A stretch of DNA of 64,000 nt, taken from the NCBI GenBank assembly GCA_963674755.2, contig CAXXVS010000002.1, positions 544,001 through 608,000 of the forward strand. The letters are read 5' to 3'. The stretch comes from Desulfobacterales bacterium. Its GTDB lineage: Bacteria; Desulfobacterota; Desulfobacteria; Desulfobacterales; UBA5852. A program made the translations under genes and the position numbers. The notes under the pieces are model-generated. The model ran no database searches and had not been told where the DNA came from. It saw only the letters and a program-made list of their open reading frames with translations. Shown piece after piece: positions 2,491 through 20,198 of this stretch (position 1 is its first letter; every line of letters begins with the position of its first letter).

Positions 2491-4701
2491 TTATTGGATG
2501 CCGTAGGATTTCATTTTTCGTTGCAAGGTTCGCAGGCCGATACCTAATGTTCGGGCCGTGTGGGTGCGATTCCAGCGGCAGCGGGCCAGGCTGTCCGTAA
2601 TCAGTTGCTTTTCGAACTGGGCGGTGGCCTCCGGAAGCGTGGCGTCATCAAGTTGGGGCGAGGGATTCGTCAAGGCCGGGGGAGGCAGCGGATCGGATGC
2701 ATTCCGGATTTCGCCGGTCAGGTCGAGGCGTTTCAAGGTGACGAAGCGGTACAGCACATTTTGCAGTTCGCGCACATTTCCCGGCCAATCATGGGACAGC
2801 AGGGTTTCCATCACCTGATCGCCGAGCTGGGGCCGCATCTTGCTGTCATAGGCCTTGAGAAAATGTTCGATCAGCAGCGGGATGTCTTCCTTGCGCTTGC
2901 GCAAGGGGGGCAGGTGAATCGGAATGACGTGCACCCGGTAGAAAAAATCGCTGCGCATCATGCCTTGCTGAACCAGTTCCGTCAGGTTGCGGCTGGTGGC
3001 GGCAATGACGCGGAAATTCGGCTTGCGGACCTCGTTGCTGCCAACGGGCGAATAGCCGCCACCCTCGATGGCGCGCAGCAGCTTGACTTGCAGGTCGGGC
3101 TTGATTTCACCAATTTCATCCAGGAATAAACTGCCGCCGTCGGCCTCGTCGAGGTAGCCGGGCTTATCGGCCGCAGCCCCGGTGAACGCTCCTTTGCGGT
3201 GACCGAAAAATTCCCTTTCCAGGAGGGTCTCCGGAATGGCCCCGCAGTTGACCGGCACGAAGCGGCCGTTGCGGCGGTCGCTCATGTTGTGGATGGCGCT
3301 GGCGGCCAGTTCCTTGCCGGTGCCCGACTCCCCGTACAAAATGATGTTGGCGTCCGAAGCGGCGGCCATGAGCATCAACTCGTAGATTTCCTGCATGGCC
3401 GGGCTCGCTCCGACCATATCCCCGAACTTGTTGCGCTGCTGAATAGTGGTGCGCAGCCGCAGATTTTCGCGGCGCAGATGGGCCTCGCTGTCCCGCAGGG
3501 TTTCCTCCATGCGCTTGCGCTGGTCGATGTCCGAAATCATGGACTGGCAATAGATACTGCCGTCGGCCATGCGGATAGGGACATTGACGCTGTAATACCA
3601 TTTCTTGTCGTTGGGGTTTTTCATTTCGAAGCGGACGCTCTGCCCCTCGAAAACCTGGTCGCTGACACACCACAGACATTTCGACTGGCGATGGTGAAAG
3701 GCCTCGTAGCAGATTTCGCCGGTGGCATTGCGGCCTACGAAGCGCACCATATTTTCGTTCATGAACTTGATGCGGTAATCCTTGGAGATGAAATAGAGAA
3801 GACCCTCATAGCCTTCCAGCATAGCGCTATATAGGGCTTCACGCTCACGCAAATGCTTCTCGGTCTCTTTGAGGTAGGTGATATCGATCAGAGAAGCAAT
3901 GGTGCGCCCGGGCTCCGGCAGCATGCCGACTTTGATGAAAATGTCTTTGAGGGTGCCATGGCGGTCCATGATCTGGCATTCGTATTCCACCGGCACCCGC
4001 GGCTCACCGTCGCGGCGCGCGTAGTGGTAATGCTTCACCCGCTCACGGTCGTTGTCCGCAATGAAATCGATCCATTGCATGCGACCTTCGATGGCGCTGC
4101 GCTCGTAGCCGGTCAGGTCTTCAAATTTCGGATTGGCCATGGAAATGGTAAAGTCATGATCAACGATGATGGAAGGGGACCCTGAATGGTTGAAAATGCG
4201 GCGGTATTTCTTTTCGGCCTGGACCAGCTCCGCGGTGCGTTCCTGCACCAGCGTCTCCAGATTCTCATGGTAGCGGCGGAGTTCGGCCTCGGTCTCCTTT
4301 TGATCGCTGACATTGCGGACGATGGCCAGGGCTTCGTCCTCGCTGCAGACGATCATACGTGATTCGTAAAAGCGCCGCTTACCGGCGAAATTCAGGCTGT
4401 AGTCCAGGTATTGCACCTGGCGGGTTTGAAAGGCTTGGGCGATTTTCGCGAGAAACAGGTCGGCGGTGTCGGCCGGGAGGACATCCCGGAGGTGTTTACC
4501 AAGGTAGGCGTCGGCCGGCCAGTAGAGCTCGGCGGTGGCACCCTCGAAACTCTGGAAGATGCCCTTCCGGCTGATGCGGATGATCATGTCCGGAATGGCG
4601 TCGACGATGGCTTGATAAATACGGTGGTTTACTTCACTTGCGAACGGTTTTGTCGGATCGGGGTTCCCAGCGGTATGGCCGGTTTGGGATGGAGCGCCCA
4701 T
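2491..4701 (-). CDS. Multi-PAS sigma54-dependent transcriptional activator (Fis-type HTH)
   Basis: Three PAS-like repeats; GESGTGKE Walker [26 protein letters not shown]-terminal HTH. Confidence 0.95.
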
Positions 4702-8937: not shown

Positions 8938-9155
8938 CGGCGTAATCTTCTATGGGGACGCGCCCAGCCAACGCGATGAAACTGCAGGCGGGCCTGTCGC
9001 TGGTGTCCATCTTATTCCTTTTTCTGGGGCGACAGACATTTTGTCAACGCCTTTCTTCAGCAAATCGTTAAAACCGGCGGGTTGCCGCCGGGGCGGCAAT
9101 CGCTTATGATAGCAATCAGGGTTTGCAACTAAATCGGCTGACATAGGACGCGTAT

Positions 9156-9638
9156 ATGATCGAAAAAGCATTACGGGAGGTCGTTGTCCCCGCGGAAGAA
9201 GCAACGTTCTGGATGGATTGCTGGGGGAACTGGTGCAACCGGCACGGCCGTTTGGAACACCGCAAAATCATCGCTTATTTCAATGCCGCCATCGCGCGGG
9301 ACGAGCAGGGATATTTCGTTTCCCAGATCAATGGTGACGTGCGTGAAAAAGTGTACTTCCGCTATGAAGAAACGGCTCTTTTCGTATTCGACGTGCGGCC
9401 GGGAGAGGTGCTGACACTGGTTCTCAACACCGGTCGTGAGGTCAGGCTGGAACCCGGAATGCTCTTTATCCGCAACGACCACCTTTACGCCCGTAAGGGT
9501 GACGAGTTGATCAAATTCAATGAAATCAGTATGCTGAAAATCAGTCGCTTTTTTGACTATGCGGAAGACCACTGTTTTCTCAACTATAAGGGACAGCGAA
9601 CGGCCATTCCCGTGATGCCTGACCGACCGTCAACCTGA
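9156..9638 (+). CDS. Conserved hypothetical protein (DUF1285-like)
   Basis: 160-aa ORF with FWMDCWGNWCNRHG...EKVYFRYEETALFVFDV pattern. Confidence 0.6.
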   Translation: MIEKALREVVVPAEEATFWMDCWGNWCNRHGRLEHRKIIAYFNAAIARDEQGYFVSQINGDVREKVYFRYEETALFVFDVRPGEVLTLVLNTGREVRLEPGMLFIRNDHLYARKGDELIKFNEISMLKISRFFDYAEDHCFLNYKGQRTAIPVMPDRPST

Positions 9639-9712
9639 GATCCAACCGGCGGCCGCCCCCATGGTTGGGAAGGGCATCATTATCGGCCTGGCCATTCGGA
9701 GAGGAGGGGAAG

Positions 9713-10081
9713 ATGAAATGGTTTATCGTCCTGATCAGTATCATTTGGATTGCATCGGGTGGTTTTTTGATCCTTTACACAGACCGCTGCCGTGATATGC
9801 TGGCTAAGGCCTTCGAACGGATGGGTCGCCTACCGCTAGCGGCCACGGCCGCCCTTCTTGGCCTTTTATTGCTGCTCTCGGCCCGCAGCACCGTGAATTC
9901 CGGTGTCGTGGTCGTGCTTGGACTGCTGGCGCTTGCCAAAGGGGGTGTCTTTCTCTGGAACCCGGGCCATTTTTTCGACAAGACGCGGCAATGGTGGCTG
10001 GAACGGGCCACCGACCAGACCTACCGCCTGACCGGTATCATTATTCTTGTTCTCGGAACGGCCCTGATTTCCTGGATTTGA
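9713..10081 (+). CDS. Small integral membrane protein (about 4 TM helices)
   Basis: GAGGAGG SD; four hydrophobic segments. Confidence 0.7.
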   Translation: MKWFIVLISIIWIASGGFLILYTDRCRDMLAKAFERMGRLPLAATAALLGLLLLLSARSTVNSGVVVVLGLLALAKGGVFLWNPGHFFDKTRQWWLERATDQTYRLTGIIILVLGTALISWI

Positions 10082-10316
10082 AGGTTGCCCCAGGTGGCCC
10101 ACGCTTTCCGATATGGCCGTGCCGTCTTGAAGCGCCGACCGGCTGGTGGTCTCATGTTGTTTAACGATGCACGCTTTTACAGAGCGGCGTTGGCCGGCAA
10201 CAAGCACGGTTTGGATTGGAGACGGCCAATGAGCGGCTGTCCGTTAGGGACGCTTTATCAGGCGGAAATCCCGCCCCACCTGGCTGACGTAATGGTCGAT
10301 ACCGATAGGACGGAAG

Positions 10317-11372
10317 ATGAATCGTTGCCGCGAAAGATACGGTGACACGAACCAGCCGCAAACGGAACGTCCGATCGATCGGTTGTCGGAATACGCGACC
10401 GTGTTGGGCACCGGACTGGTCGTTTTTCTAGCGTTGCTGATGGGAACTGTGGTTGTAAATGCCCAGCCCGGCATGCCGAACAGGGGCAACGATGAAATCG
10501 CCCGGGTGAATGGCGTTGTCATTACCCGCCAGGCGTTCCAGATCACCTATCGCCAGGCCGTTGATCAGCACGCCCGGGAGGGGCATCCGATTGATGAAGT
10601 CCACCTCGCGCCCTTGCGCCGCAAGGTTATCCAACGCATGGTGGAAGAAGAACTGCTTGTCCAGGAGAGCCGACGGCGCGGCATCACGATCTCAAGCGAA
10701 GAAGTCGATCAGGATGTGGCGGCCGCCCGGGCTCGCTTTGAAACGCCGGAGGCTTTCCAGCAGGAGCTTGCGCGGCTGTATCTGGATGAGACCGGCTATC
10801 GGCGCTACCTAAAGCGGCAGAGGGCTATCGACCGCCTTCTGGCCCAGCAGGTCGACCCCTCGGTATCCGTCTCACCAGAGGAGATGCGGCGGTTCTACGA
10901 GGCTAATCCCCAGCGGTATCAATCCCCTGAAACGATACGCGTGCGTCACATCCTGATCCACAGAGCGGCCGGCGATGCAAACGCCTCCCCCGATGCCGCC
11001 TACCGCAAGATTTCCATGATCAGAGAAAAGTTGGAACAGGGCGAAGATTTTGCCGACCTGGCGGCAGAGTATTCCCAGGAGTCTACCTGGGAGCGGGGAG
11101 GAGATCTGGGCTTCATCCAGCGCGGCCAGATGGTGCCTTCGATCGAATCGGTGGTATTCGATCTGAAGGTGGGGGAAATCAGCCCTATCTTGACCACTGA
11201 ACACGACTACCACCTCGTCCAGGTAAGCGAACGCCATGCCGCAACGATGATGCCGTTTGAGGAGGCCCGGAGCGACATTCAAAAGACCTTGTTGCAGGTC
11301 AAACAAAAGCAAGCGATACGCGCTTATATCAATGTGTTGCGCAAGCGGGCCGAGATTCAGGACGGCCAGTGA
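10317..11372 (+). CDS. Second PpiC/SurA-type peptidyl-prolyl isomerase
   Basis: IARVNGVVIT, IRVRHILI, FADLAAEYSQE, GGDLGFIQRGQMVP; N-terminal hydrophobic anchor. Confidence 0.9.
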   Translation: MNRCRERYGDTNQPQTERPIDRLSEYATVLGTGLVVFLALLMGTVVVNAQPGMPNRGNDEIARVNGVVITRQAFQITYRQAVDQHAREGHPIDEVHLAPLRRKVIQRMVEEELLVQESRRRGITISSEEVDQDVAAARARFETPEAFQQELARLYLDETGYRRYLKRQRAIDRLLAQQVDPSVSVSPEEMRRFYEANPQRYQSPETIRVRHILIHRAAGDANASPDAAYRKISMIREKLEQGEDFADLAAEYSQESTWERGGDLGFIQRGQMVPSIESVVFDLKVGEISPILTTEHDYHLVQVSERHAATMMPFEEARSDIQKTLLQVKQKQAIRAYINVLRKRAEIQDGQ

Positions 11373-11595
11373 CGGCGGTCACTGCCCCCAACATCGAAGT
11401 CACCGCGTGGTGTGGTTGATTGATGTGCAAAGCCGGTGCTAATCTGATCCCATAATCGAGAGCGACGTTCCCAGAACGATTTCCCGGATATTAAACCCTT
11501 TCGCTGCGGGCAATTCAAGCCCGCTAGAACGTTGCCATCTTCCGGAGGCACAACCAAGCGGTTCCAACGACCCGATAGGCCCAAGCGAGCTATCT

Positions 11596-13281
11596 ATGCC
11601 GTCAGATCAACCGTCAGGGCCAAGCCTGACAAACAGTCCTTTGCGAACGTGTGTTCATCCCGCTGGTCGTTTTCGTGTGGCCCACCACCGCTCCTCTTTT
11701 TCGGTGGTCAATTTGCGACTGCGTCGATGGGTTCAGGAAGTGGGGCGCCGTGGGGACGATACCCCAGTGACCAACCATACCAATTTCCCGGAAGGACCGA
11801 TGGCCGCGCATGAAACGGACGGCGTCTATGAAATTGCCAATCCCTTCCCGTTTCGGGGGGCCACCTATATTGGCAAAGCATGGGCCGATGCCAAACGACG
11901 CGACCCGTCCGCAATCTGTCTGCCGCCCCCTGCGGCGCTGTCCATGACCCGGTGGTGTCGTGAACAGCTTGCCGGCGATGGGGTTCCTGCCGACCGTTGT
12001 TCGGATTGGCTCCAATCCATGCCCGAAGCGGTTCAACTGGCCCTGGCCGTCAATTCCACCGACCCGGAAGACCTGATTCCCCTGGCGGAAGCCTGCGGTG
12101 CATTTCTCCATGATCCGGATACGGGCCAGCCCGTCGGTCTCCGTTATGGCACGCGATCCGATGGCACCGTGTACCCTCTGATCCATAACCCCGTTTTGTT
12201 TGAGGCCGTGGCCAACAACGCTCATCTGCCGGATGTCTACAAAGAGGTGATGGTATTGCGGCCCGGGGCCCAGGGCGGCAGCGCTATCATGGGGGAATGG
12301 CAAGCGCCGAGCGGCAGCCATGTCTTTGAATATCTGCGTGACAACAGCTATATTCCCGGGGGGCATTATGCCGCCAACATGGCCAATGACGCCATCCGCT
12401 ACCGGCTGGATGCGCTCGCCATGCATGATATGATTGGCATGCGGCATCTATACTATCAGCGTACCTTCGTACGCCTGGCGACCATGGCCGGGTTGGAAGC
12501 GGACTTCGACCGGAGGAGCCTCTCCGTAGGGGAACTGGAAGCGCTGCGGCATCATCTCCTGGCAGCATTTGCGAATCCAGCCAAGGGACGCCAAATGGCC
12601 GCAAACGGCGCGTTGTGGGGATGGAATTTCGGCTTTGATTATTCGCCCAGTCATTACCGCCTGCATGCCTCCCACCAGCAGATCCACCAGCAGTATGCGC
12701 TCATTCCCCGGAACGCGCCGGCCGCCGGATCGCCGGCCGGGTCGGCGGGAGTGCTTTCCGCCTATGCCTGCGGCGATCAGATCCACGATTTTATAGGCGC
12801 CTATAAGGACGCCACCGGGACGGATTTTTTCACGGCTTATGTCAACGCCGTGCTTCAGAACGAACGTACCGACGGACGCACCGACGGGGATAGCGACCTG
12901 GTGGTCTACCGTGATGCCAACGTCATCGTGTTTGTTCCCAAGGCCCAGACATCCCAGTGGGAGCTTCAGATCCTTCCCCTAAACCCGGTGGGCAACGTCC
13001 TCGAAGCCGATGAGCCGACCCGGGCATCCCTGGACAGGGCCCTCTGGACGACACTGCGCACCCTTGGGAATATGGGGGCCCGCATGGTGACCACCATCGA
13101 GTTCAGCAAGCGCTTCGATGCCGGTGCCACGGGCCAGCGCCTGCTCTACAGTATTCTGCCGCGTCTTCCCGAATCGCCCGGTGCGTTTAGCGAAGCGCAA
13201 CTGCGCTGGATTACCGGCCACTATCCCGAAGATTTTGCGGCCGCCTGCCGCCTGCGGCGACCCATCGCCGACATGCCGTAA
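11596..13281 (+). CDS. Hypothetical protein with divergent GalT/Ap4A-phosphorylase (HIT superfamily)-like motifs
   Basis: 561-aa ORF; WNFG...HASHQQIHQQY resembles N-x-G...GAS-x-x-HxHxQ; VYRDANVIVFVPKAQTSQWELQILP resembles the second GalT domain. Confidence 0.6.
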   Translation: MPSDQPSGPSLTNSPLRTCVHPAGRFRVAHHRSSFSVVNLRLRRWVQEVGRRGDDTPVTNHTNFPEGPMAAHETDGVYEIANPFPFRGATYIGKAWADAKRRDPSAICLPPPAALSMTRWCREQLAGDGVPADRCSDWLQSMPEAVQLALAVNSTDPEDLIPLAEACGAFLHDPDTGQPVGLRYGTRSDGTVYPLIHNPVLFEAVANNAHLPDVYKEVMVLRPGAQGGSAIMGEWQAPSGSHVFEYLRDNSYIPGGHYAANMANDAIRYRLDALAMHDMIGMRHLYYQRTFVRLATMAGLEADFDRRSLSVGELEALRHHLLAAFANPAKGRQMAANGALWGWNFGFDYSPSHYRLHASHQQIHQQYALIPRNAPAAGSPAGSAGVLSAYACGDQIHDFIGAYKDATGTDFFTAYVNAVLQNERTDGRTDGDSDLVVYRDANVIVFVPKAQTSQWELQILPLNPVGNVLEADEPTRASLDRALWTTLRTLGNMGARMVTTIEFSKRFDAGATGQRLLYSILPRLPESPGAFSEAQLRWITGHYPEDFAAACRLRRPIADMP

Positions 13282-13573
13282 CCCTGTCTTTATGCGGTAT
13301 TTATCCCCTGAAATGCGCTGATAAGCCATTGGCCGGCGTTGATTCGGTCACGCTGATCAGGGCGATGGCCCCTCGCGGCTGAAAGCCCGAGAACCGGCCG
13401 TATCCCTTTGTAGCGTCTGTAAAAATGTCCCCCTGTCTACATTAGTATAGGCATCCATCCGGCTTGGTGAGGCCGCCTTGCCGAGTGGGTTACCCCCCGA
13501 CCGCTGGGAGGCCTGGTCCGCATAAGCTCTTCGCAGTGGCTTGCGCAGGTTGTCATGACATGTGCCCATTTCC

Positions 13574-13590
13574 TAGGCGCACATTTTGCA
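13574..13590 (+). promoter_or_regulatory. Candidate sigma54 promoter of the GNAT-CRP/ThiF operon
   Basis: TAGGCGC-ACATT-TTGCA with GG-N10-GC spacing, about 125 bp before the ATG at 13715. Confidence 0.5.
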
Positions 13591-13714
13591 AGCTTATTGT
13601 CCATCAGGACTGCGTGATGGTGGTTTGAAGACGCCGGTCGGCCCGGTGCCCTATAATGTTCGGGGTATTGCCGGGCCCGTTGGTCTGCCCCGTGTTCGAG
13701 CAGGAGGTCAATTC

Positions 13715-14875
13715 ATGCCGATCCGACTGAAAATTGCACAATCAACCGCCGAAAAATCAGAGGTCTACCGGTTCAGGCATCAGGTGTTTGTCGAGGAAGA
13801 AGGGCGATTTCAAGTTTCGGACAATCATATCATCGATCAGTATGACAGCTTTGCGGAAACGATCAATGTCCTGGCCTATGATGACCGGCACCCCATCGGC
13901 AGTATCCGCGTTATCATGGAAAATGACGTGGGGTTTCCGGCGGACGATTTTTATGATTTCGCGCCCTTTCGGAAGACCCTCAACGGGGCTTGCGCCTGCA
14001 TCGGCTGGCTGTGCTGCGCCCGAAAATACCGCCGGCATCCCGGTCTGGTGATCGGCCTGATCAAGATGTGTTTCCGTGAAATGCGCAAGAAAAAGGCCCG
14101 GCATGTCCTGGCCACGCTTCATCCACCGGTGCTGTCGATGCTGTCCCGGATTGTCGGCGCCCGGGCCATCGGGCCCGAGTTCCATTGCGACGCCCTGCAG
14201 GTTGCCATGCTTCCGGTGCATGTCGATCTGCAGCAATTGCCCCCCGGCAGCCGGGAGACGTTCGATGACCCGTCCAACATGATCCTGGATGATTCCAACG
14301 AGCGGCGCATTTATCGGCGGGGCGAAGTCATCATACGCAAAGACGATATCGGCGAGGAAGCCTTCCTGATGATGCGCGGTTCCGTCCGTGTGGTGAGCGA
14401 AGACGGCGGTGATGCTTTAATGACGGACGGCCCGATGTTCGGCCCCGGGCAAATATTTGGCGAATTATCGCTGCTGGACGGCGGGCCTCGGACATCCACC
14501 GTGATTGCCAGCTCCAATGAAGCCGATGTCATGGTCTGGAAGCGCGCCGAGCTGCTTCAGCAGCTCGCACGTGACAGGGGGCGCGCATTGCGGATTCTGG
14601 AATTACTGGGCACCCGCCTGCGGCACCAGATCGAGGGGCGCCGCAACGATCCGCCTGTTTCGCTTGCCGCCCGTATTCTGGTGGACAGCTCCCATAACGG
14701 GGAACTTCCCGTCGATATGCAATGGCTGAGTCGTCAGTGCGGGATCGAGGGACGTGTCTTTCAGGATATCATGAATAGCTGGGAGCGGGCGCACTGGATC
14801 ACGACCGATCCTGACCGGGGGTGTCTGGCAGTGAACAATCGGGATGAACTCACGGCCCAGATTGGTATGCCCTGA
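13715..14875 (+). CDS. N-acyl amino acid synthase (FeeM/OxzA-like GNAT) fused to cNMP-binding and Crp-like C-terminal domains
   Basis: AGGAGG SD; VYRFRHQVFVEEEG...IIDQYD...IGSIRVI (GNAT, NAS/LuxI-like); YRRGEVII...RGSVRV...FGELSLLDGGPRTSTV (cNMP cassette); HTH-like tail. Confidence 0.8.
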   Translation: MPIRLKIAQSTAEKSEVYRFRHQVFVEEEGRFQVSDNHIIDQYDSFAETINVLAYDDRHPIGSIRVIMENDVGFPADDFYDFAPFRKTLNGACACIGWLCCARKYRRHPGLVIGLIKMCFREMRKKKARHVLATLHPPVLSMLSRIVGARAIGPEFHCDALQVAMLPVHVDLQQLPPGSRETFDDPSNMILDDSNERRIYRRGEVIIRKDDIGEEAFLMMRGSVRVVSEDGGDALMTDGPMFGPGQIFGELSLLDGGPRTSTVIASSNEADVMVWKRAELLQQLARDRGRALRILELLGTRLRHQIEGRRNDPPVSLAARILVDSSHNGELPVDMQWLSRQCGIEGRVFQDIMNSWERAHWITTDPDRGCLAVNNRDELTAQIGMP

Positions 14876-14930
14876 CGAACCCGCTGGTCCGTGGATGGTT
14901 TGAAGATGTCTGCCGGAAAGTGATGCGACG

Positions 14931-16973
14931 ATGGAAAATTTATCTCATAGGTCAGAACTGCGCGCCCTCGGGTACCAGCACAAATATCATTACCTCGAGG
15001 ATGCCCTTGCCCGCAATATCGGTTTCTTTTCGATGGCCGAGCAGGATCGGCTCCTGAATACGACGGTGGCGATACCCGGATTGGGGGGCGTTGGCGGAGC
15101 CCATCTCATCACCCTGGCCCGCATGGGGGTAGGCCGTTTCCATCTGGCGGATTTTGACGTATTCGAACCGGCCAATCTGAACCGGCAATATGGCGCCAAG
15201 GTCAGCCATTTCGGACGCCCCAAACTGGATGTCATGGTCGAGGAAGCGCTGAACATCAACCCTTTTCTTGATATTCGAAGATTCCCCGAGGGGGTTGGCC
15301 AGAAGAATCTGGAAACCTTTCTGGACGGGGTCGATGTGGTGGTGGACGGGATCGATTTTTTCAACTTCGATGTGCGTCGTATGGTCTTCAAGCGGGCCGC
15401 GGCGCTAGGGATCCATACTATTACGGCCGGTCCGCTGGGTTACAGTGCGGCGATGCTGGTGTTTGCACCCGGCCAGGGAATGGATTTCGATGCCTACTTT
15501 GATATTCGCGATGGGATGCCGCTCGAAGATAAACTGCTCGCGTTTATGATCGGCCTGGCCCCGCGTGCAACACATCGGCACTACATCGATCCCCGCGCCG
15601 TCGACTTGGAACATCAGCGGGGGCCCTCATTGGGCGCGGGCTGTGAGAATTGTGCGGCCACGGCCGCGGCAGAGGTGGCCCGGATTGTGCTCGGGCAGCC
15701 CGGCGTGCGTCCGGCACCCCACTACGTTCAATATGATCCCTATGTCCGGCGGTTTCACCAGGGGTATCTTCCGTTTGGCAATCGAAATCTCCTCCAACGC
15801 TTGAAGCGGCGTCTTATCAAACGGCAGATGCGGCATGACGGCCGACGCCCTTCCCCTATCCCTCCGGCCGCACCGCGCGTTGTCGATATGGGCGCGGACA
15901 TTCCACAGGACGTCATGGATTACCTGCTGCGTGCTGCGATTCAGGCCCCGTCGGGTGATAACTGCCAACCCTGGTGGTTTCGCGTCGATCACAACCGTAT
16001 CGATATTGGCCTGCGGCCGGAAGCCGACCATTCACTGTTCAATGTCAATCAATGTGCGTCCCTGATTGCCTGCGGGGCGGCGCTGGAAAATCTTCTGCTT
16101 GCCGCCACCCGCTATGGCCTCGAGGGCGATGTGAGCTACCCGCCTGAAGCCCAAGCCGACGATTGCCTGGCAAGCGTTCGCCTGCGCCGGTCCGGGATCG
16201 AAGAGGATCCCCTGCTCCGGTTCATCTGGGAGCGACACACCAACCGCACCCGCTATCACCAGAGTCCGTTGCCACCGAAGAGCATGATCGAACTGATCCG
16301 CAGTCTGGATCACTACCCTGAGATGGCGTTGAAACTCTACCATTCCAAAGAGGATATTCGCACCATCGCCGGGCTGGTTTATCAAGCCGACCGGGCCCGC
16401 GTAACGCTGCGCGGCCTCCATGAGCAGTTGATTCGGATGATTCGCTTCTCCCGCGAAGAGGTGCTTCAAAAACGCGACGGATTCCCATTGGAAAATCTGG
16501 AAGCCGGCTGGGGTGGCGAAATGTTTTTACGATTGACACGCAACTGGTCTGTCATGCGAATCTTCAATCGTCTCGGTATCTCCAGGATCGTTCCCCTGAT
16601 CGCCTATCGGGGCATCATGAACGCCTCTCTGATCGGTTTGCTCAAGTGCCCGGATACGCGCCCGGAAACCTTGGTCAAAGGCGGACGGGCGCTCGAGCGC
16701 TTATGGTTGACGACTACCCGGATGGGGCTCTCCTTCCAGCCCATGACAGCCATAACCCTTTTCTGGATGCGCTGGCGGATGAATCAGCTGGACGCCTTGG
16801 GGGACAACCAAGCCCGGATGCTGAAGTCCATGTGGAAGGCCTATCACCATATTTTCGACGTGACGCCGGACAGTCATGAGGGCCATATAATGCTGTTTCG
16901 CATCGGGGTCGGCAACCCGGTCGCCTGCCGGACATTTCGTAAAGCACCTGAAGCCTGCTTGCTGCCGAACTGA
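14931..16973 (+). CDS. ThiF adenylyltransferase-nitroreductase fusion (OxzB-like)
   Basis: RNIG...VAIPGLGGVGG...LADFDVFEPANLNRQ (ThiF); APSGDNCQPW, GAALEN, RHTNR, GRALERLWL, QPMT, LFRIG (nitroreductase-like). Confidence 0.88.
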   Translation: MENLSHRSELRALGYQHKYHYLEDALARNIGFFSMAEQDRLLNTTVAIPGLGGVGGAHLITLARMGVGRFHLADFDVFEPANLNRQYGAKVSHFGRPKLDVMVEEALNINPFLDIRRFPEGVGQKNLETFLDGVDVVVDGIDFFNFDVRRMVFKRAAALGIHTITAGPLGYSAAMLVFAPGQGMDFDAYFDIRDGMPLEDKLLAFMIGLAPRATHRHYIDPRAVDLEHQRGPSLGAGCENCAATAAAEVARIVLGQPGVRPAPHYVQYDPYVRRFHQGYLPFGNRNLLQRLKRRLIKRQMRHDGRRPSPIPPAAPRVVDMGADIPQDVMDYLLRAAIQAPSGDNCQPWWFRVDHNRIDIGLRPEADHSLFNVNQCASLIACGAALENLLLAATRYGLEGDVSYPPEAQADDCLASVRLRRSGIEEDPLLRFIWERHTNRTRYHQSPLPPKSMIELIRSLDHYPEMALKLYHSKEDIRTIAGLVYQADRARVTLRGLHEQLIRMIRFSREEVLQKRDGFPLENLEAGWGGEMFLRLTRNWSVMRIFNRLGISRIVPLIAYRGIMNASLIGLLKCPDTRPETLVKGGRALERLWLTTTRMGLSFQPMTAITLFWMRWRMNQLDALGDNQARMLKSMWKAYHHIFDVTPDSHEGHIMLFRIGVGNPVACRTFRKAPEACLLPN

Positions 16974-17199
16974 AAACTGCTCAATCCGCCTTACAAGTTC
17001 TACCCTCCGGCCTATTACGATCCGTCGGATCTGCTCGGGGAACCCACCTCCCTAGAAATGCTTCCTGACAGGTTTGCACGCTAATGCCGCTTTGCCATGA
17101 TGGGATGGGCGAGCGAGGCGTCATCGCAGACGAAAATCGCGTGAGACCGCATGCGGTCGACAGGCATGCGGCGGCAACGGCGGCCGCAAAAGGTTCGAT

Positions 17200-18546
17200 C
17201 TATAAAGATTGGTCCCGGAGGGGCAAGCGCAGCGTCTGATTGACATGGATTCGATTTCCCCGGTTGGATAGATTGTTGGCCGCCACGAGATCCGCCACAC
17301 GCAGATCGTGTTTTTTAGCGATCGAGGAGAGTGTGTCGCCCTTGCGTACGCGGTAGATGGGGGAACGTTTTTGGCGCACCATCAGAAGTGGTTCCGGAAT
17401 CCTGGCATTGTAGGCCAGCCGGTAGTGCCATTCATGGGCGGGAACGCGCAGGGCATAGTGTCGGGGAATGTACTGGAGGCCATTGAGAACGGCAGGGCGC
17501 AGAGCCGGATTGAGCCGGCGCAGAAGGTCGGCATCCAGATTGAAATGCCGGGCGGCGTCCCTGAACGCCACGAAGCCGTCCGAGGAAATGTGGAGGACCG
17601 GGCGTTCCTCCCGTGGTGGCAGGGCATCGAAATAATGTCGGGCGTTGCGGGCTGCTTCCCGGGCGGCCAGAAATTCCGGGTAGAAGTTGCGTGACGCAAA
17701 GCGGAACCGGCGGCTGCGGTAGTTTTGAAAGATCGCCGCATAGCTCTTGTGGCGGCGTTTGGCGCGCCGCAGGCCTGCGATACCGTGATTATAGGCCGTG
17801 ATCGCCAGGGGCCAGCTTCCAAGTCTGCGATAGTTGGTTTTCAGAAGCATAGCGGCGGCTTCGGAGGCGCGGACCGGGTCCAAGCGCTCGTCGATTGCCG
17901 GGTCAATGTGGAGATAATGGCGCCCGGTTTTCCGGGTAAACTGCCAGATGCCCGTCGCACCGGATTTGCTATGCGCCTGGTTGTTGAAGGAAGATTCGAC
18001 GTGCGCCAGGTAGGCCAGATCCTCGGGCAACCCGGCGTTGCGGAAGATGGTCCGAATGGTTTCGATATGGGCAGAGGAGCGGATCAATCCTTCGCGGAAA
18101 CGGTCGCGCTGACCGACCTGGCAGCGAATACGCCGTTTGGCCTGTTTTAACTGGTCCGGCGTTAGGGACGCTTTCCACAGGTCGGTGATGGGTATGAGAT
18201 CCGGGTCATTGCTGTGTGGGTTGCGCATCAGACGGTCGAGTTGATCGCGCACCTTGAGACGTGCCTGTCGCATGCGGGCGGCATTGATGCGATGCGCTTG
18301 CGGTGCATCGGGATGCTTGAGTTCGATGACGTCATAGATGATTTCCGGGTGCCGGCTGTCATGCACCACCCCCTCCACGAGGCTATAGCGGGTATAGATG
18401 GCCAACCAGAAGTTGACCGATGGCTGAATGGCCGCTGGTTGCGGAAACGGATCGGCCGCGTACGTTATCATGGGACGGATTCCCAAAATCAGAATAGCCC
18501 CGAATAGGGCGGTCAGTGGCGTCAGGAAGCGGTTGAGCAGTGTCAT
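17200..18546 (-). CDS. Lytic murein transglycosylase (SLT domain) with LysM, MltD-like
   Basis: LAHVESSF, GATGIWQF, LAITAYNHG; C-terminal YRVRKGDTLSSIAKKH. Confidence 0.92.
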   Translation of the reverse strand: MTLLNRFLTPLTALFGAILILGIRPMITYAADPFPQPAAIQPSVNFWLAIYTRYSLVEGVVHDSRHPEIIYDVIELKHPDAPQAHRINAARMRQARLKVRDQLDRLMRNPHSNDPDLIPITDLWKASLTPDQLKQAKRRIRCQVGQRDRFREGLIRSSAHIETIRTIFRNAGLPEDLAYLAHVESSFNNQAHSKSGATGIWQFTRKTGRHYLHIDPAIDERLDPVRASEAAAMLLKTNYRRLGSWPLAITAYNHGIAGLRRAKRRHKSYAAIFQNYRSRRFRFASRNFYPEFLAAREAARNARHYFDALPPREERPVLHISSDGFVAFRDAARHFNLDADLLRRLNPALRPAVLNGLQYIPRHYALRVPAHEWHYRLAYNARIPEPLLMVRQKRSPIYRVRKGDTLSSIAKKHDLRVADLVAANNLSNRGNRIHVNQTLRLPLRDQSL

Positions 18547-18786
18547 TCATCAATCTCCAGGCAGAGAGGTTGCGCTTGTGAATCGGTAGAGCGTTCCAGG
18601 GGAAAATAGCAAAGAGTGTACCGAAAGCGGTTGCTATATGGAAATACAATGTATATCCAGAAAGATAGATGGATGTGGAAAACCGCGGCGGTCGATTGGG
18701 AAGAGGCTGGCGGATGGAACTGTATACAAAACATTACGGTTAGCCGGGGCGTGGGGCTATCGGTGGAGGCCCTGGTCGATAGGTCG

Positions 18787-19341
18787 ATGGAAGGGCAATT
18801 CAATCAACAACATGAGATTTTAGCCGACATGGTCGGCGATCTCAAATGTCATCATCCCAAGGTGGTCCTGCTTTTCGGGTCAATGGCCCGCATGCTGACC
18901 GGCAAGGTTACGGGCCATCCGCCAAATGATATCGATTTGCTGGTGGTGGGTGACCAGGTCCCGGCTTTGCTCGAAACAAAAGACTATGGGTTTCCCACAG
19001 AAATGATCCGGATGAGAACCCGTACGCTCACGGAAATCGCCCGATCACTTCGCTACGACAGCCGTCCCGTGGCCCTTGCCAAGCTTTATGCACACCAACT
19101 GGCCAGACAGCATGCCAGCCCTGTGATTGCCGCCTGCCTTCTGCTCGGAGAGACATATCGCTCGTTCGGGATTGAACAGATCGAACTGGATGGGAAGGAG
19201 GATCAACGTGATTATTCGGTGCATCAGGTCTTGTTGGGGCACGCCTGGTGGCGGCAACTCGTGGCCTACACCCGCGAACGGCGAGGACCGCTCAAACGCT
19301 TGAGTGACAAGATTGCACGAATAGACGTCTTCGAAGGCTGA
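18787..19341 (+). CDS. Nucleotidyltransferase-domain protein (Pol-beta/MNT-like)
   Basis: VLLFGSMAR...DIDLLVVG motif. Confidence 0.7.
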   Translation: MEGQFNQQHEILADMVGDLKCHHPKVVLLFGSMARMLTGKVTGHPPNDIDLLVVGDQVPALLETKDYGFPTEMIRMRTRTLTEIARSLRYDSRPVALAKLYAHQLARQHASPVIAACLLLGETYRSFGIEQIELDGKEDQRDYSVHQVLLGHAWWRQLVAYTRERRGPLKRLSDKIARIDVFEG

Positions 19342-19406
19342 TGAAAGCGGTTGGATGTGGAGAGGCATTCCGCTATCGCGTGACGGCGGTAGGGCGGCCA
19401 GGTATC

Positions 19407-19835
19407 CTAAATATTGAGCCAGTTGCTCAACAGGCTTTTGGCCATCTGAGGATTGGGGAAACCGGAACTATCGCTGAAAAGGCCGACCCGTAAAGAGTAG
19501 TTGGCGCCGTCTCCCCATGGCCAGCAAGTGGCATAGAGCCATATGCCGGAGGCGTTTTCGTCGGTCGCAATGAAAAGGTTCTGCCCTGGCATCAACCCAA
19601 ATCCGGATTGGATGAACTCACTGACGAGGCTGGAGGAATTATCGATGGTCGTGAAATCCCATGTCTGCTCGAATTCGAGGGCGATGGGCAAGAGAATTAA
19701 TTCCAGATCTTCTTTATCGAAGACCACCAGGGCGTGATTATATTTGTCGTCCCAGTCCCAGTGGTTGCCGGGGGGGATATTCAGGCCAATACGACCGCAG
19801 ATGGTTTTAAATTTTGCCAGCTCAGGGGAATTCAT
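19407..19835 (-). CDS. Hypothetical protein
   Basis: 142-aa ORF with protein-like composition (WDWDD, CWPWGDG). Confidence 0.7.
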   Translation of the reverse strand: MNSPELAKFKTICGRIGLNIPPGNHWDWDDKYNHALVVFDKEDLELILLPIALEFEQTWDFTTIDNSSSLVSEFIQSGFGLMPGQNLFIATDENASGIWLYATCWPWGDGANYSLRVGLFSDSSGFPNPQMAKSLLSNWLNI

Positions 19836-20198
19836 CTGTCAGGACCGGTTTACGGTAAAAAGATACGTCCCATTTACGGCCACAATAGGATAAATTTCCA
19901 TACAAGTCAATCTGTTGCACGCTATTGGCAAACGTTTCTGCGAAAAGCTGAAATCATCTAGGGCTTTAACGTGTCGCCGGTGGCCCCACCATCCAAGGTG
20001 GATAGGTCCGGTTCGTTCCCTCGGCCCGCCGCCTTATCTTTGCTTCTCAGCCCCATGCATTTGAATCCCTACACGGCCCATGCTATGTTGAGGGCCGCTT
20101 CAATCCTATTTTTCAATTCGGGCGTGGCTGTCCGAACACCGAGACGTCAATGCCCTGTTTGCGGCCCGACGATCGGCCGCTAGGTCAAGATAGGTCCA

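Follow-up and report, generated by a model that had tools for sequence, protein, structure and literature searches.

The window (the whole stretch of DNA that was analysed, 64,000 nucleotides from a Desulfobacterales bacterium) contains a pair of genes on the same strand: a single open reading frame encoding an acyltransferase joined to a CRP-type module (P0001), and a gene for a ThiF-nitroreductase protein (P0002). The coordinates of both genes, of the domains of P0001, and of the features upstream are collected in Table 1.

Table 1. Features of the acyltransferase-CRP fusion locus (positions are those of the window)
Feature	Position	Strand	Basis or remark
Conserved upstream element, candidate enhancer (UAS)	13415..13451	+	motif sampler; about 160 bp before the sigma54 site
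Sigma54 (-24/-12) promoter-like site	13574..13591	+	GG 13576-13577, GC 13588-13589
Ribosome-binding site AGGAGG	13702..13707	+	sequence; same start Met in homologues
Fusion gene, FeeM/OxzA-type acyltransferase + CRP-type module, 386 aa (P0001)	13715..14875	+	sequence, Pfam, model
N-acyltransferase domain, residues 1-172	13715..14230	+	PF21926, FeeM structural match, residue counts
Conserved linker, residues 173-195	14231..14299	+	alignment; DSSP on model
Cyclic-nucleotide-binding barrel with B and C helices, residues 196-307	14300..14635	+	PF00027
Phosphate-binding cassette, residues 248-262	14456..14500	+	conservation in 76 homologues
CRP-type winged helix, residues 313-386	14651..14872	+	conservation, isolated fold, structure comparison
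OxzB/TrzS-like ThiF-nitroreductase, 680 aa (P0002)	14931..16973	+	55 bp downstream of the fusion gene

The product of the downstream gene matched PF00899 (E 5.5e-44) and PF00881 (E 8.6e-8), and scored 832 bits against PRK14851, below the cut-off of 1170. All seven of the motif patterns for the ThiF ATP site and the flavin site were found in it, by pattern matching rather than by a residue alignment with OxzB or TrzS. OxzB and TrzS, both oxazolone synthetases, are described as having this ThiF-nitroreductase architecture (bioRxiv 10.1101/2020.06.11.147165; PMC12856293). Upstream of the fusion lies a 561-aa open reading frame (11596-13281, forward strand) with no Pfam or NCBIfam match; it occupies this place in all 13 genus-level loci (L080-L092) and is absent there in more distant loci. 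This protein contains the histidine motif LHASHQQIHQQY, which resembles that of the GalT/HIT nucleotidyltransferases. A small Pol-beta-like nucleotidyltransferase with a weak match to PF18765 (18616-19341, forward strand) is kept after oxzB in the loci L001, L002, L004, and L005. No Rfam match was obtained within positions 9000-20000.

A complete CRP-type module behind an acyltransferase

A Pfam search with P0001 returned FeeM (PF21926) over residues 16-171 at 69.3 bits (cut-off 27) and cNMP_binding (PF00027) over residues 198-287 at 60.6 bits (cut-off 27.5). An earlier note on this DNA had quoted motifs for the cassette and the tail, all of which we located in the protein. The two domains are joined by a linker in which, across the homologue alignment, E181 is invariant and P176, D185, and P186 are near-invariant. 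The AlphaFold2 model of full-length P0001, built from a 76-sequence alignment, reached a pLDDT of 90.7 and a pTM of 0.88. In the structure comparison it came closest to FeeM (174 residues aligned, Z 15.8, rmsd 2.8); AHL synthases ranked next and cNMP domains after them. Foldseek ranked CRP and GlxR structures first. The two CRP sub-domains of the model fit CRPs loosely, with an rmsd of about 6.

The family profile matched solved CRP/FNR proteins in a single stretch (profile positions 191-391). When folded alone, the tail gave a pLDDT of 89 and matched Cmr with a Z of 10.9 and an rmsd of 2.6 over 71 residues; CRP/FNR-family proteins filled nine of the top 11 rows. As the profile spans solved CRPs unbroken and the tail folds as a winged helix, we conclude that a complete CRP-type module stands behind the enzyme. 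The tail had been described as Crp-HTH-like, and this holds for profile and fold, which identify a CRP-type winged helix; the Pfam search yielded no HTH match in the tail of P0001 itself, and HTH_Crp_2 was weakly detected in 12 of the 76 homologues (best E 0.0023). Among the matches listed, 110 of 120 homologues carried both domains at a query coverage of at least 87%, which indicates that the architecture did not arise by chance. Like CRP, GlxR, and Cmr, P0001 runs without a break from the cNMP barrel through the C-helix to the winged helix; it differs from these factors in that an enzyme domain replaces the N-terminal helix, the recognition helix is not conserved, and no operator was found.

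Distribution of the fusion and its tailoring partners

The fusion gene is present in all 12 genomes of the genus and in 14 of the 17 of the family; organisms closely related to the host bear the label Desulfobacterales. In a class-wide sample, 24 of 401 genomes gave a match (15 near full length, two shorter, and seven to the acyltransferase only). All 14 genomes of the family that carry the fusion have an oxzB-like gene directly downstream, as do four of the eight other full-length carriers of the class sample. In the remaining four, the oxzB-like gene lies on the opposite strand at a distance of 2.7 kb (G269), is represented by pieces on other contigs (G389), or gave no match in two complete-looking genomes (G126 and G385). 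Downstream of the fusion, G385 has genes for an FAD oxidoreductase and a radical SAM protein instead, and G126 has a canonical synthase and transport genes. Family members lacking oxzB adjoin an FAD-linked oxidoreductase at L120:4952-9097 and L121:8910-11557, which suggests another tailoring route. OxzB-like genes occur in 39 of the 401 class genomes.

In seven genomes, this acyltransferase is fused straight to the ThiF-nitroreductase with no CRP module in between, an arrangement that Pfam confirmed for two of the seven. When trees were built from the acyltransferase domain, these triple fusions grouped with the CRP fusions that are adjacent to oxzB (FastTree 0.984; UFBoot 93), and this grouping suggests that, in their lineage, the CRP module was lost from an oxzB-type operon. 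The alternative tree that places the triple fusions outside the CRP-fused group was not rejected (AU p 0.053), and their branch is long.

The wider synthase-cNMP family extends further: both domains were present in 50 of 58 representatives chosen among the 150 matches listed. Many relatives are about 305 aa long and end after the C-helix with no winged helix, and another subfamily, whose members are about 400 aa long, also keeps the tail. It is worth mentioning that the synthase-cNMP module is also found fused to a histidine kinase (P0168), a P450, a methyltransferase, or a second cNMP domain (P0191, P0234, and P0147 are among the carriers), and that at one locus (L011:725-3214) a fusion gene is followed in tandem by another, in which the acyltransferase motif has diverged. 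We found no plasmid copy of the CRP fusion. Plasmid pDV of D. vulgaris Hildenborough encodes a 989-aa synthase-ThiF-nitroreductase beside PEP-CTERM genes (L158:7107-10076). Because its synthase keeps the beta-4 Glu and is only 17% identical to that of P0001, this fusion arose independently; its host is a model anaerobe that can be cultured.

The DNA-reading surface and transcription of the operon

Residues of the winged-helix scaffold have been conserved (W337, L338, Q341, G343, and W356), so some function has presumably been retained. Its recognition helix varies, with a conservation of 0.40 across the 76 homologues, and is acidic. The base-reading residues of CRP are R180, E181, and R185, and the equivalent positions hold those residues in 9, 14, and 2 of the 76, respectively. 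In 50 of the 76, the domain carries no net charge or a negative one, the same drift of the recognition helix is seen in related subfamilies, and strict patterns for a CRP or FNR box found none in 32 upstream regions. The palindrome at 13551-13560 was considered as an operator and rejected, as it is present at the locus of this genome alone. Judging from the sequences, the DNA-reading surface of the CRP module looks to have decayed.

The region upstream points to another type of control. The pattern GG-N8-TTGCW occurs within 200 bp before the start in all 19 loci with the fusion directly before oxzB and in none of the 13 others, counts in which the loci are related and the pattern was picked after it had been seen; the per-locus shuffle rate was 0-10%. 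The distance of this sigma54-type site from the gene start varies across loci, and we found no sigma70 promoter upstream of the fusion. A motif sampler recovered the upstream element in 10 of the 11 genus loci given to it, at -158 to -202, and its best hit in the host genome was the copy in Table 1, a locus that was also in the training set. This element is a candidate enhancer for a sigma54 activator. A regulon scan with the motif returned no convincing second site.

Sigma54 promoters are described as requiring an enhancer-binding protein (PMC4641369). P0001 contains no AAA+ domain, and thus control of transcription would come from outside; most likely the operon is controlled by a factor other than the fusion protein. 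The genome holds about 69 strong matches to the enhancer-binding protein family. One of the activators, a PAS-containing sigma54 activator of 736 aa (2491-4701, reverse strand), lies about 9 kb off and is a candidate by proximity only. The PEP-CTERM regulator PrsR was also considered and gave no match at cut-off in this genome.

These observations bear on the possibility, raised in the earlier note, that P0001 is both an enzyme and a DNA-binding protein. As such, it would make an acyl amino acid and, with its winged helix on DNA such as the conserved element, repress or tune its own operon. Such a dual role would fit the complete CRP architecture with its C-helix and winged helix, the conserved scaffold residues, the tail kept in the subfamily of about 400 aa, and the presence of a conserved element upstream. 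However, the base-reading positions and the recognition helix are not maintained, the domain is mostly neutral to acidic, and CRP/FNR boxes are missing from the 32 regions; in addition, the promoter is of the sigma54 type, the element is spaced like an enhancer for a class of activator whose AAA+ domain P0001 does not have, and the many relatives of about 305 aa stop after the C-helix. The results therefore speak against DNA binding, and we regard an enzyme that is also a regulator as improbable.

A probable cyclic-nucleotide switch

The phosphate-binding cassette had the highest mean conservation (0.81) of ten regions compared in the 76 homologues; the value for the enzyme domain was 0.60. 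Of the cassette residues, G249 is present in 76, E250 in 71, and R259 in 74 of the 76, and the cassette Glu and Arg are both retained in 266 of 292 members of the wider family. In the barrel and its B and C helices, R301 and R303 are found in 75 and 76 homologues, respectively. In E. coli CRP, a Thr/Ser pair of the C-helix reads the adenine. The corresponding residues of P0001 are Q305 and I306, which vary among the 76 homologues, so that either cAMP or cGMP would be admissible as the ligand. The genome encodes five class III cyclase domains and about 20 cNMP domains.

The pre-barrel helix of CRP is missing from the model of P0001 according to DSSP, and in the structure search, seven of the rows for cNMP domains have alignments that begin at model residues 108-116. 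In GNAT folds, the helix at this place comes after the loop that binds the acyl donor. From these alignment ranges on a predicted model, we infer that the acyltransferase helix 111-125 stands in for the N-terminal helix of CRP, which would offer a direct allosteric route between the domains. Inter-domain coevolution gave pairs at noise level only and did not confirm this placement.

That a cyclic nucleotide gates the synthesis of a metabolite, as was proposed beforehand, is probably correct, given that no part of the protein is more constrained than the cassette, that five cyclase domains are encoded, and that the partner is OxzB-like. A cyclic dinucleotide, also put forward at that time, found no support; the cassette is of the canonical Glu/Arg type. 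It could instead be argued that the acyltransferase is active and that the CRP module binds some other ligand, or serves only to stabilise or dimerise the protein: the triple fusions do without the entire module, the Thr/Ser pair has been replaced by variable residues, and the cassette Glu is lost in five of the 76 homologues. We consider this unlikely, since conservation in the protein peaks at the cassette, its Glu and Arg persist through the wider family, and NasP provides a precedent for nucleotide control.

An acyltransferase lacking the beta-4 glutamate

R21, D41, D44, and R65 are near-invariant in the acyltransferase domain, and His130 is kept in 259 of the 292 family members. P0001 lacks the canonical active-site Glu (FeeM E95, Nas354 E103) and has Cys95 at the beta-4 position. 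This Glu is found in none of the 292 family members and in all four stand-alone synthase controls from neighbouring loci, through which, rather than through the sequence of FeeM itself, the position was mapped; FeeM was not reached by sequence search from this family. In Nas354, the exchange Glu103Ala is reported to have abolished activity (PMC4897644).

The Glu-less domain might thus have a sensor role: P0001 would be a pseudo-enzyme that catalyses nothing, has acyl-CoA or the product of the pathway as its ligand, and regulates OxzB or transcription. The family-wide absence of the beta-4 Glu agrees with this, as does the occurrence of the same two-domain module in the histidine kinase fusion P0168. 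On the other hand, the conserved residues listed above, His130 included, have been strongly maintained, the other neighbours in the family are tailoring enzymes (FAD oxidoreductase, P450, and methyltransferase), and the domain is joined directly to the synthetase in seven genomes. Moreover, it is the only full-length FeeM-family match in the host genome (G000) and the only FeeM-family match in G004, G011, and the triple-fusion genomes G408, G172, and G055, so no other protein that could feed OxzB was found in these oxzB genomes; further FeeM-family matches are present in G107, G370, G089, and G147. The fusion to the ThiF-nitroreductase and the status of sole candidate favour an active enzyme that uses another mechanism, and a non-catalytic sensor seems quite improbable to us.

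The acyltransferase could also belong to a different class, namely a cNMP-gated LuxI-type homoserine lactone synthase or a protein acyltransferase that stands beside oxzB by chance. TofI, LasI, and RpaI indeed came near FeeM in the structure search (Z 14.4-15.3). Nevertheless, P0001 scored 13.4 bits against the LuxI family PF00765, under the cut-off of 24, and 20.9 bits against the Pat model NF058543, for which the cut-off is 460, and both the adjacency and the direct fusion to oxzB are conserved. An enzyme of this class is accordingly very improbable. The mycobacterial Pat enzymes, which act on protein substrates, likewise combine a GNAT and a cNMP domain, and their cNMP-GNAT order is the reverse of that in P0001.

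Comparison with known systems

NasP reportedly carries a cNMP-binding domain of its own and does not depend on CRP. By this description, P0001 resembles it in having a synthase domain and an intact cNMP cassette. A 402-aa subfamily member in Hydrogenophaga adjoins polysaccharide export genes (L015:6001-7209), and the beta/gammaproteobacterial subfamily to which it belongs is a candidate home of NasP; no match named NasP was among the homologues listed. NasP is reported to be a synthase of N-acyl amino acids that is directly activated by cAMP (Clardy and Brady 2007, J Bacteriol 189:6487, PMC1951892, as cited in PMC4897644), its products are N-acylphenylalanines (PMC8762209), and the passages covered here mention no oxazolone synthetase partner, whereas P0001 has an OxzB-like one. 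Nas343 and Nas354 are described as NAS-PilZ fusions (PMC4897644); they too place a second-messenger domain at the C-terminus, which is PilZ in their case and the cNMP/CRP module in P0001. The coupling of signalling to biosynthesis is hence not undescribed, as the earlier note had supposed, because cAMP-activated NasP and the NAS-PilZ fusions had already been published (PMC4897644).

With FeeM and the type I NAS enzymes (PDB 2G0B, PF21926), P0001 has the fold and the Pfam family in common, and it differs in the absent beta-4 Glu. In Pseudoalteromonas rubra, the acyltransferase gene oxzA is reported to lie directly before the ThiF-nitroreductase gene oxzB on the same strand (bioRxiv 10.1101/2020.06.11.147165). 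The same gene order and a FeeM-like acyltransferase fold link P0001 and P0002 with OxzAB, TyzACB (PMC10404671), and TrzAS (PMC12856293), the likeness to OxzA being one of description rather than of sequence comparison. Compared with these systems, P0001 adds the CRP module, the sigma54 promoter, and a Desulfobacterales-type host. The accounts of OxzAB, TrzAS, and TyzACB (the last with its supplement) contain, in the parts available, no cNMP/CRP fusion in an oxazolone pathway, and the supplements of OxzAB and TrzAS could mention one. The same was true of the accessible parts of PMC8762209, PMC7293339, PMC8433624, PMC4641369, and PMC12596934. The literature searched gave no description of the synthase-CRP architecture, in a keyword search that also missed NasP. 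In the portions of the literature covered here, cAMP control of a synthase for N-acyl amino acids is therefore already known from NasP, while its junction with oxazolone synthesis was not found.

A model for the switch

Taken from the sequence evidence, P0001 is on balance probably a cAMP- or cGMP-gated N-acyltransferase that fills the role of OxzA in a two-gene oxazolone pathway. The enzyme, the CRP module, and the adjacent oxazolone-type gene together indicate that a cyclic nucleotide probably switches the production of an oxazolone lipid. The architecture, the conserved residues, the gene linkage, and the conserved promoter are observed here, whereas the sequence of events is proposed. In it, a sigma54 activator would switch on the operon, and cAMP or cGMP would then bind the cassette and shift the B and C helices, which in the model pack on the acyltransferase helix 111-125 beside the acyl-donor site. 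By analogy with what is reported for NasP, this shift may activate the enzyme. Homology suggests that an N-acyl amino acid would be made from acyl-CoA or acyl-ACP, and that the ThiF-nitroreductase would cyclise and desaturate it to the oxazolone. The winged helix may have been inherited with a captured CRP and may now provide a contact for structure or dimerisation instead of reading DNA. P0001 is a real, conserved, and uncharacterised variant, in which NasP-like control would act on the first step of the oxazolone pathway.

This explanation is weakened by the absence of the beta-4 Glu, by the linkage to oxzB not being universal (G126 and G385), and by the tension between the O2 requirement of TrzS and an anaerobic host. 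Desulfobacterales are anaerobes, and a TrzS-type need for O2 sits oddly with them. The account of TrzS states that its desaturation requires O2, and it calls the physiological role of bacterial N-acyl oxazolones a major unresolved question (PMC12856293).

A bolder scheme can be drawn, which we think doubtful and improbable: a whole CRP was grafted on the Glu-less acyltransferase such that the acyl-donor helix took the place of helix one of CRP. Besides making the oxazolone precursor, the protein would bind its own sigma54 enhancer through a rewired winged helix. If this were true, one cyclic nucleotide would control both the transcription and the catalysis of a lipid signal in anaerobes, in a pathway whose final step may need oxygen.

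Under the reading that we prefer, a gated enzyme in an operon controlled from outside, the operon would have two inputs, a cyclic nucleotide acting at the enzyme and a sigma54 activator acting at the promoter. The principle of NasP would then not be a one-off, as the synthase-cNMP module constitutes a wide family that feeds different tailoring enzymes. This family does without the glutamate that was thought to be essential, and would use another catalytic mechanism.
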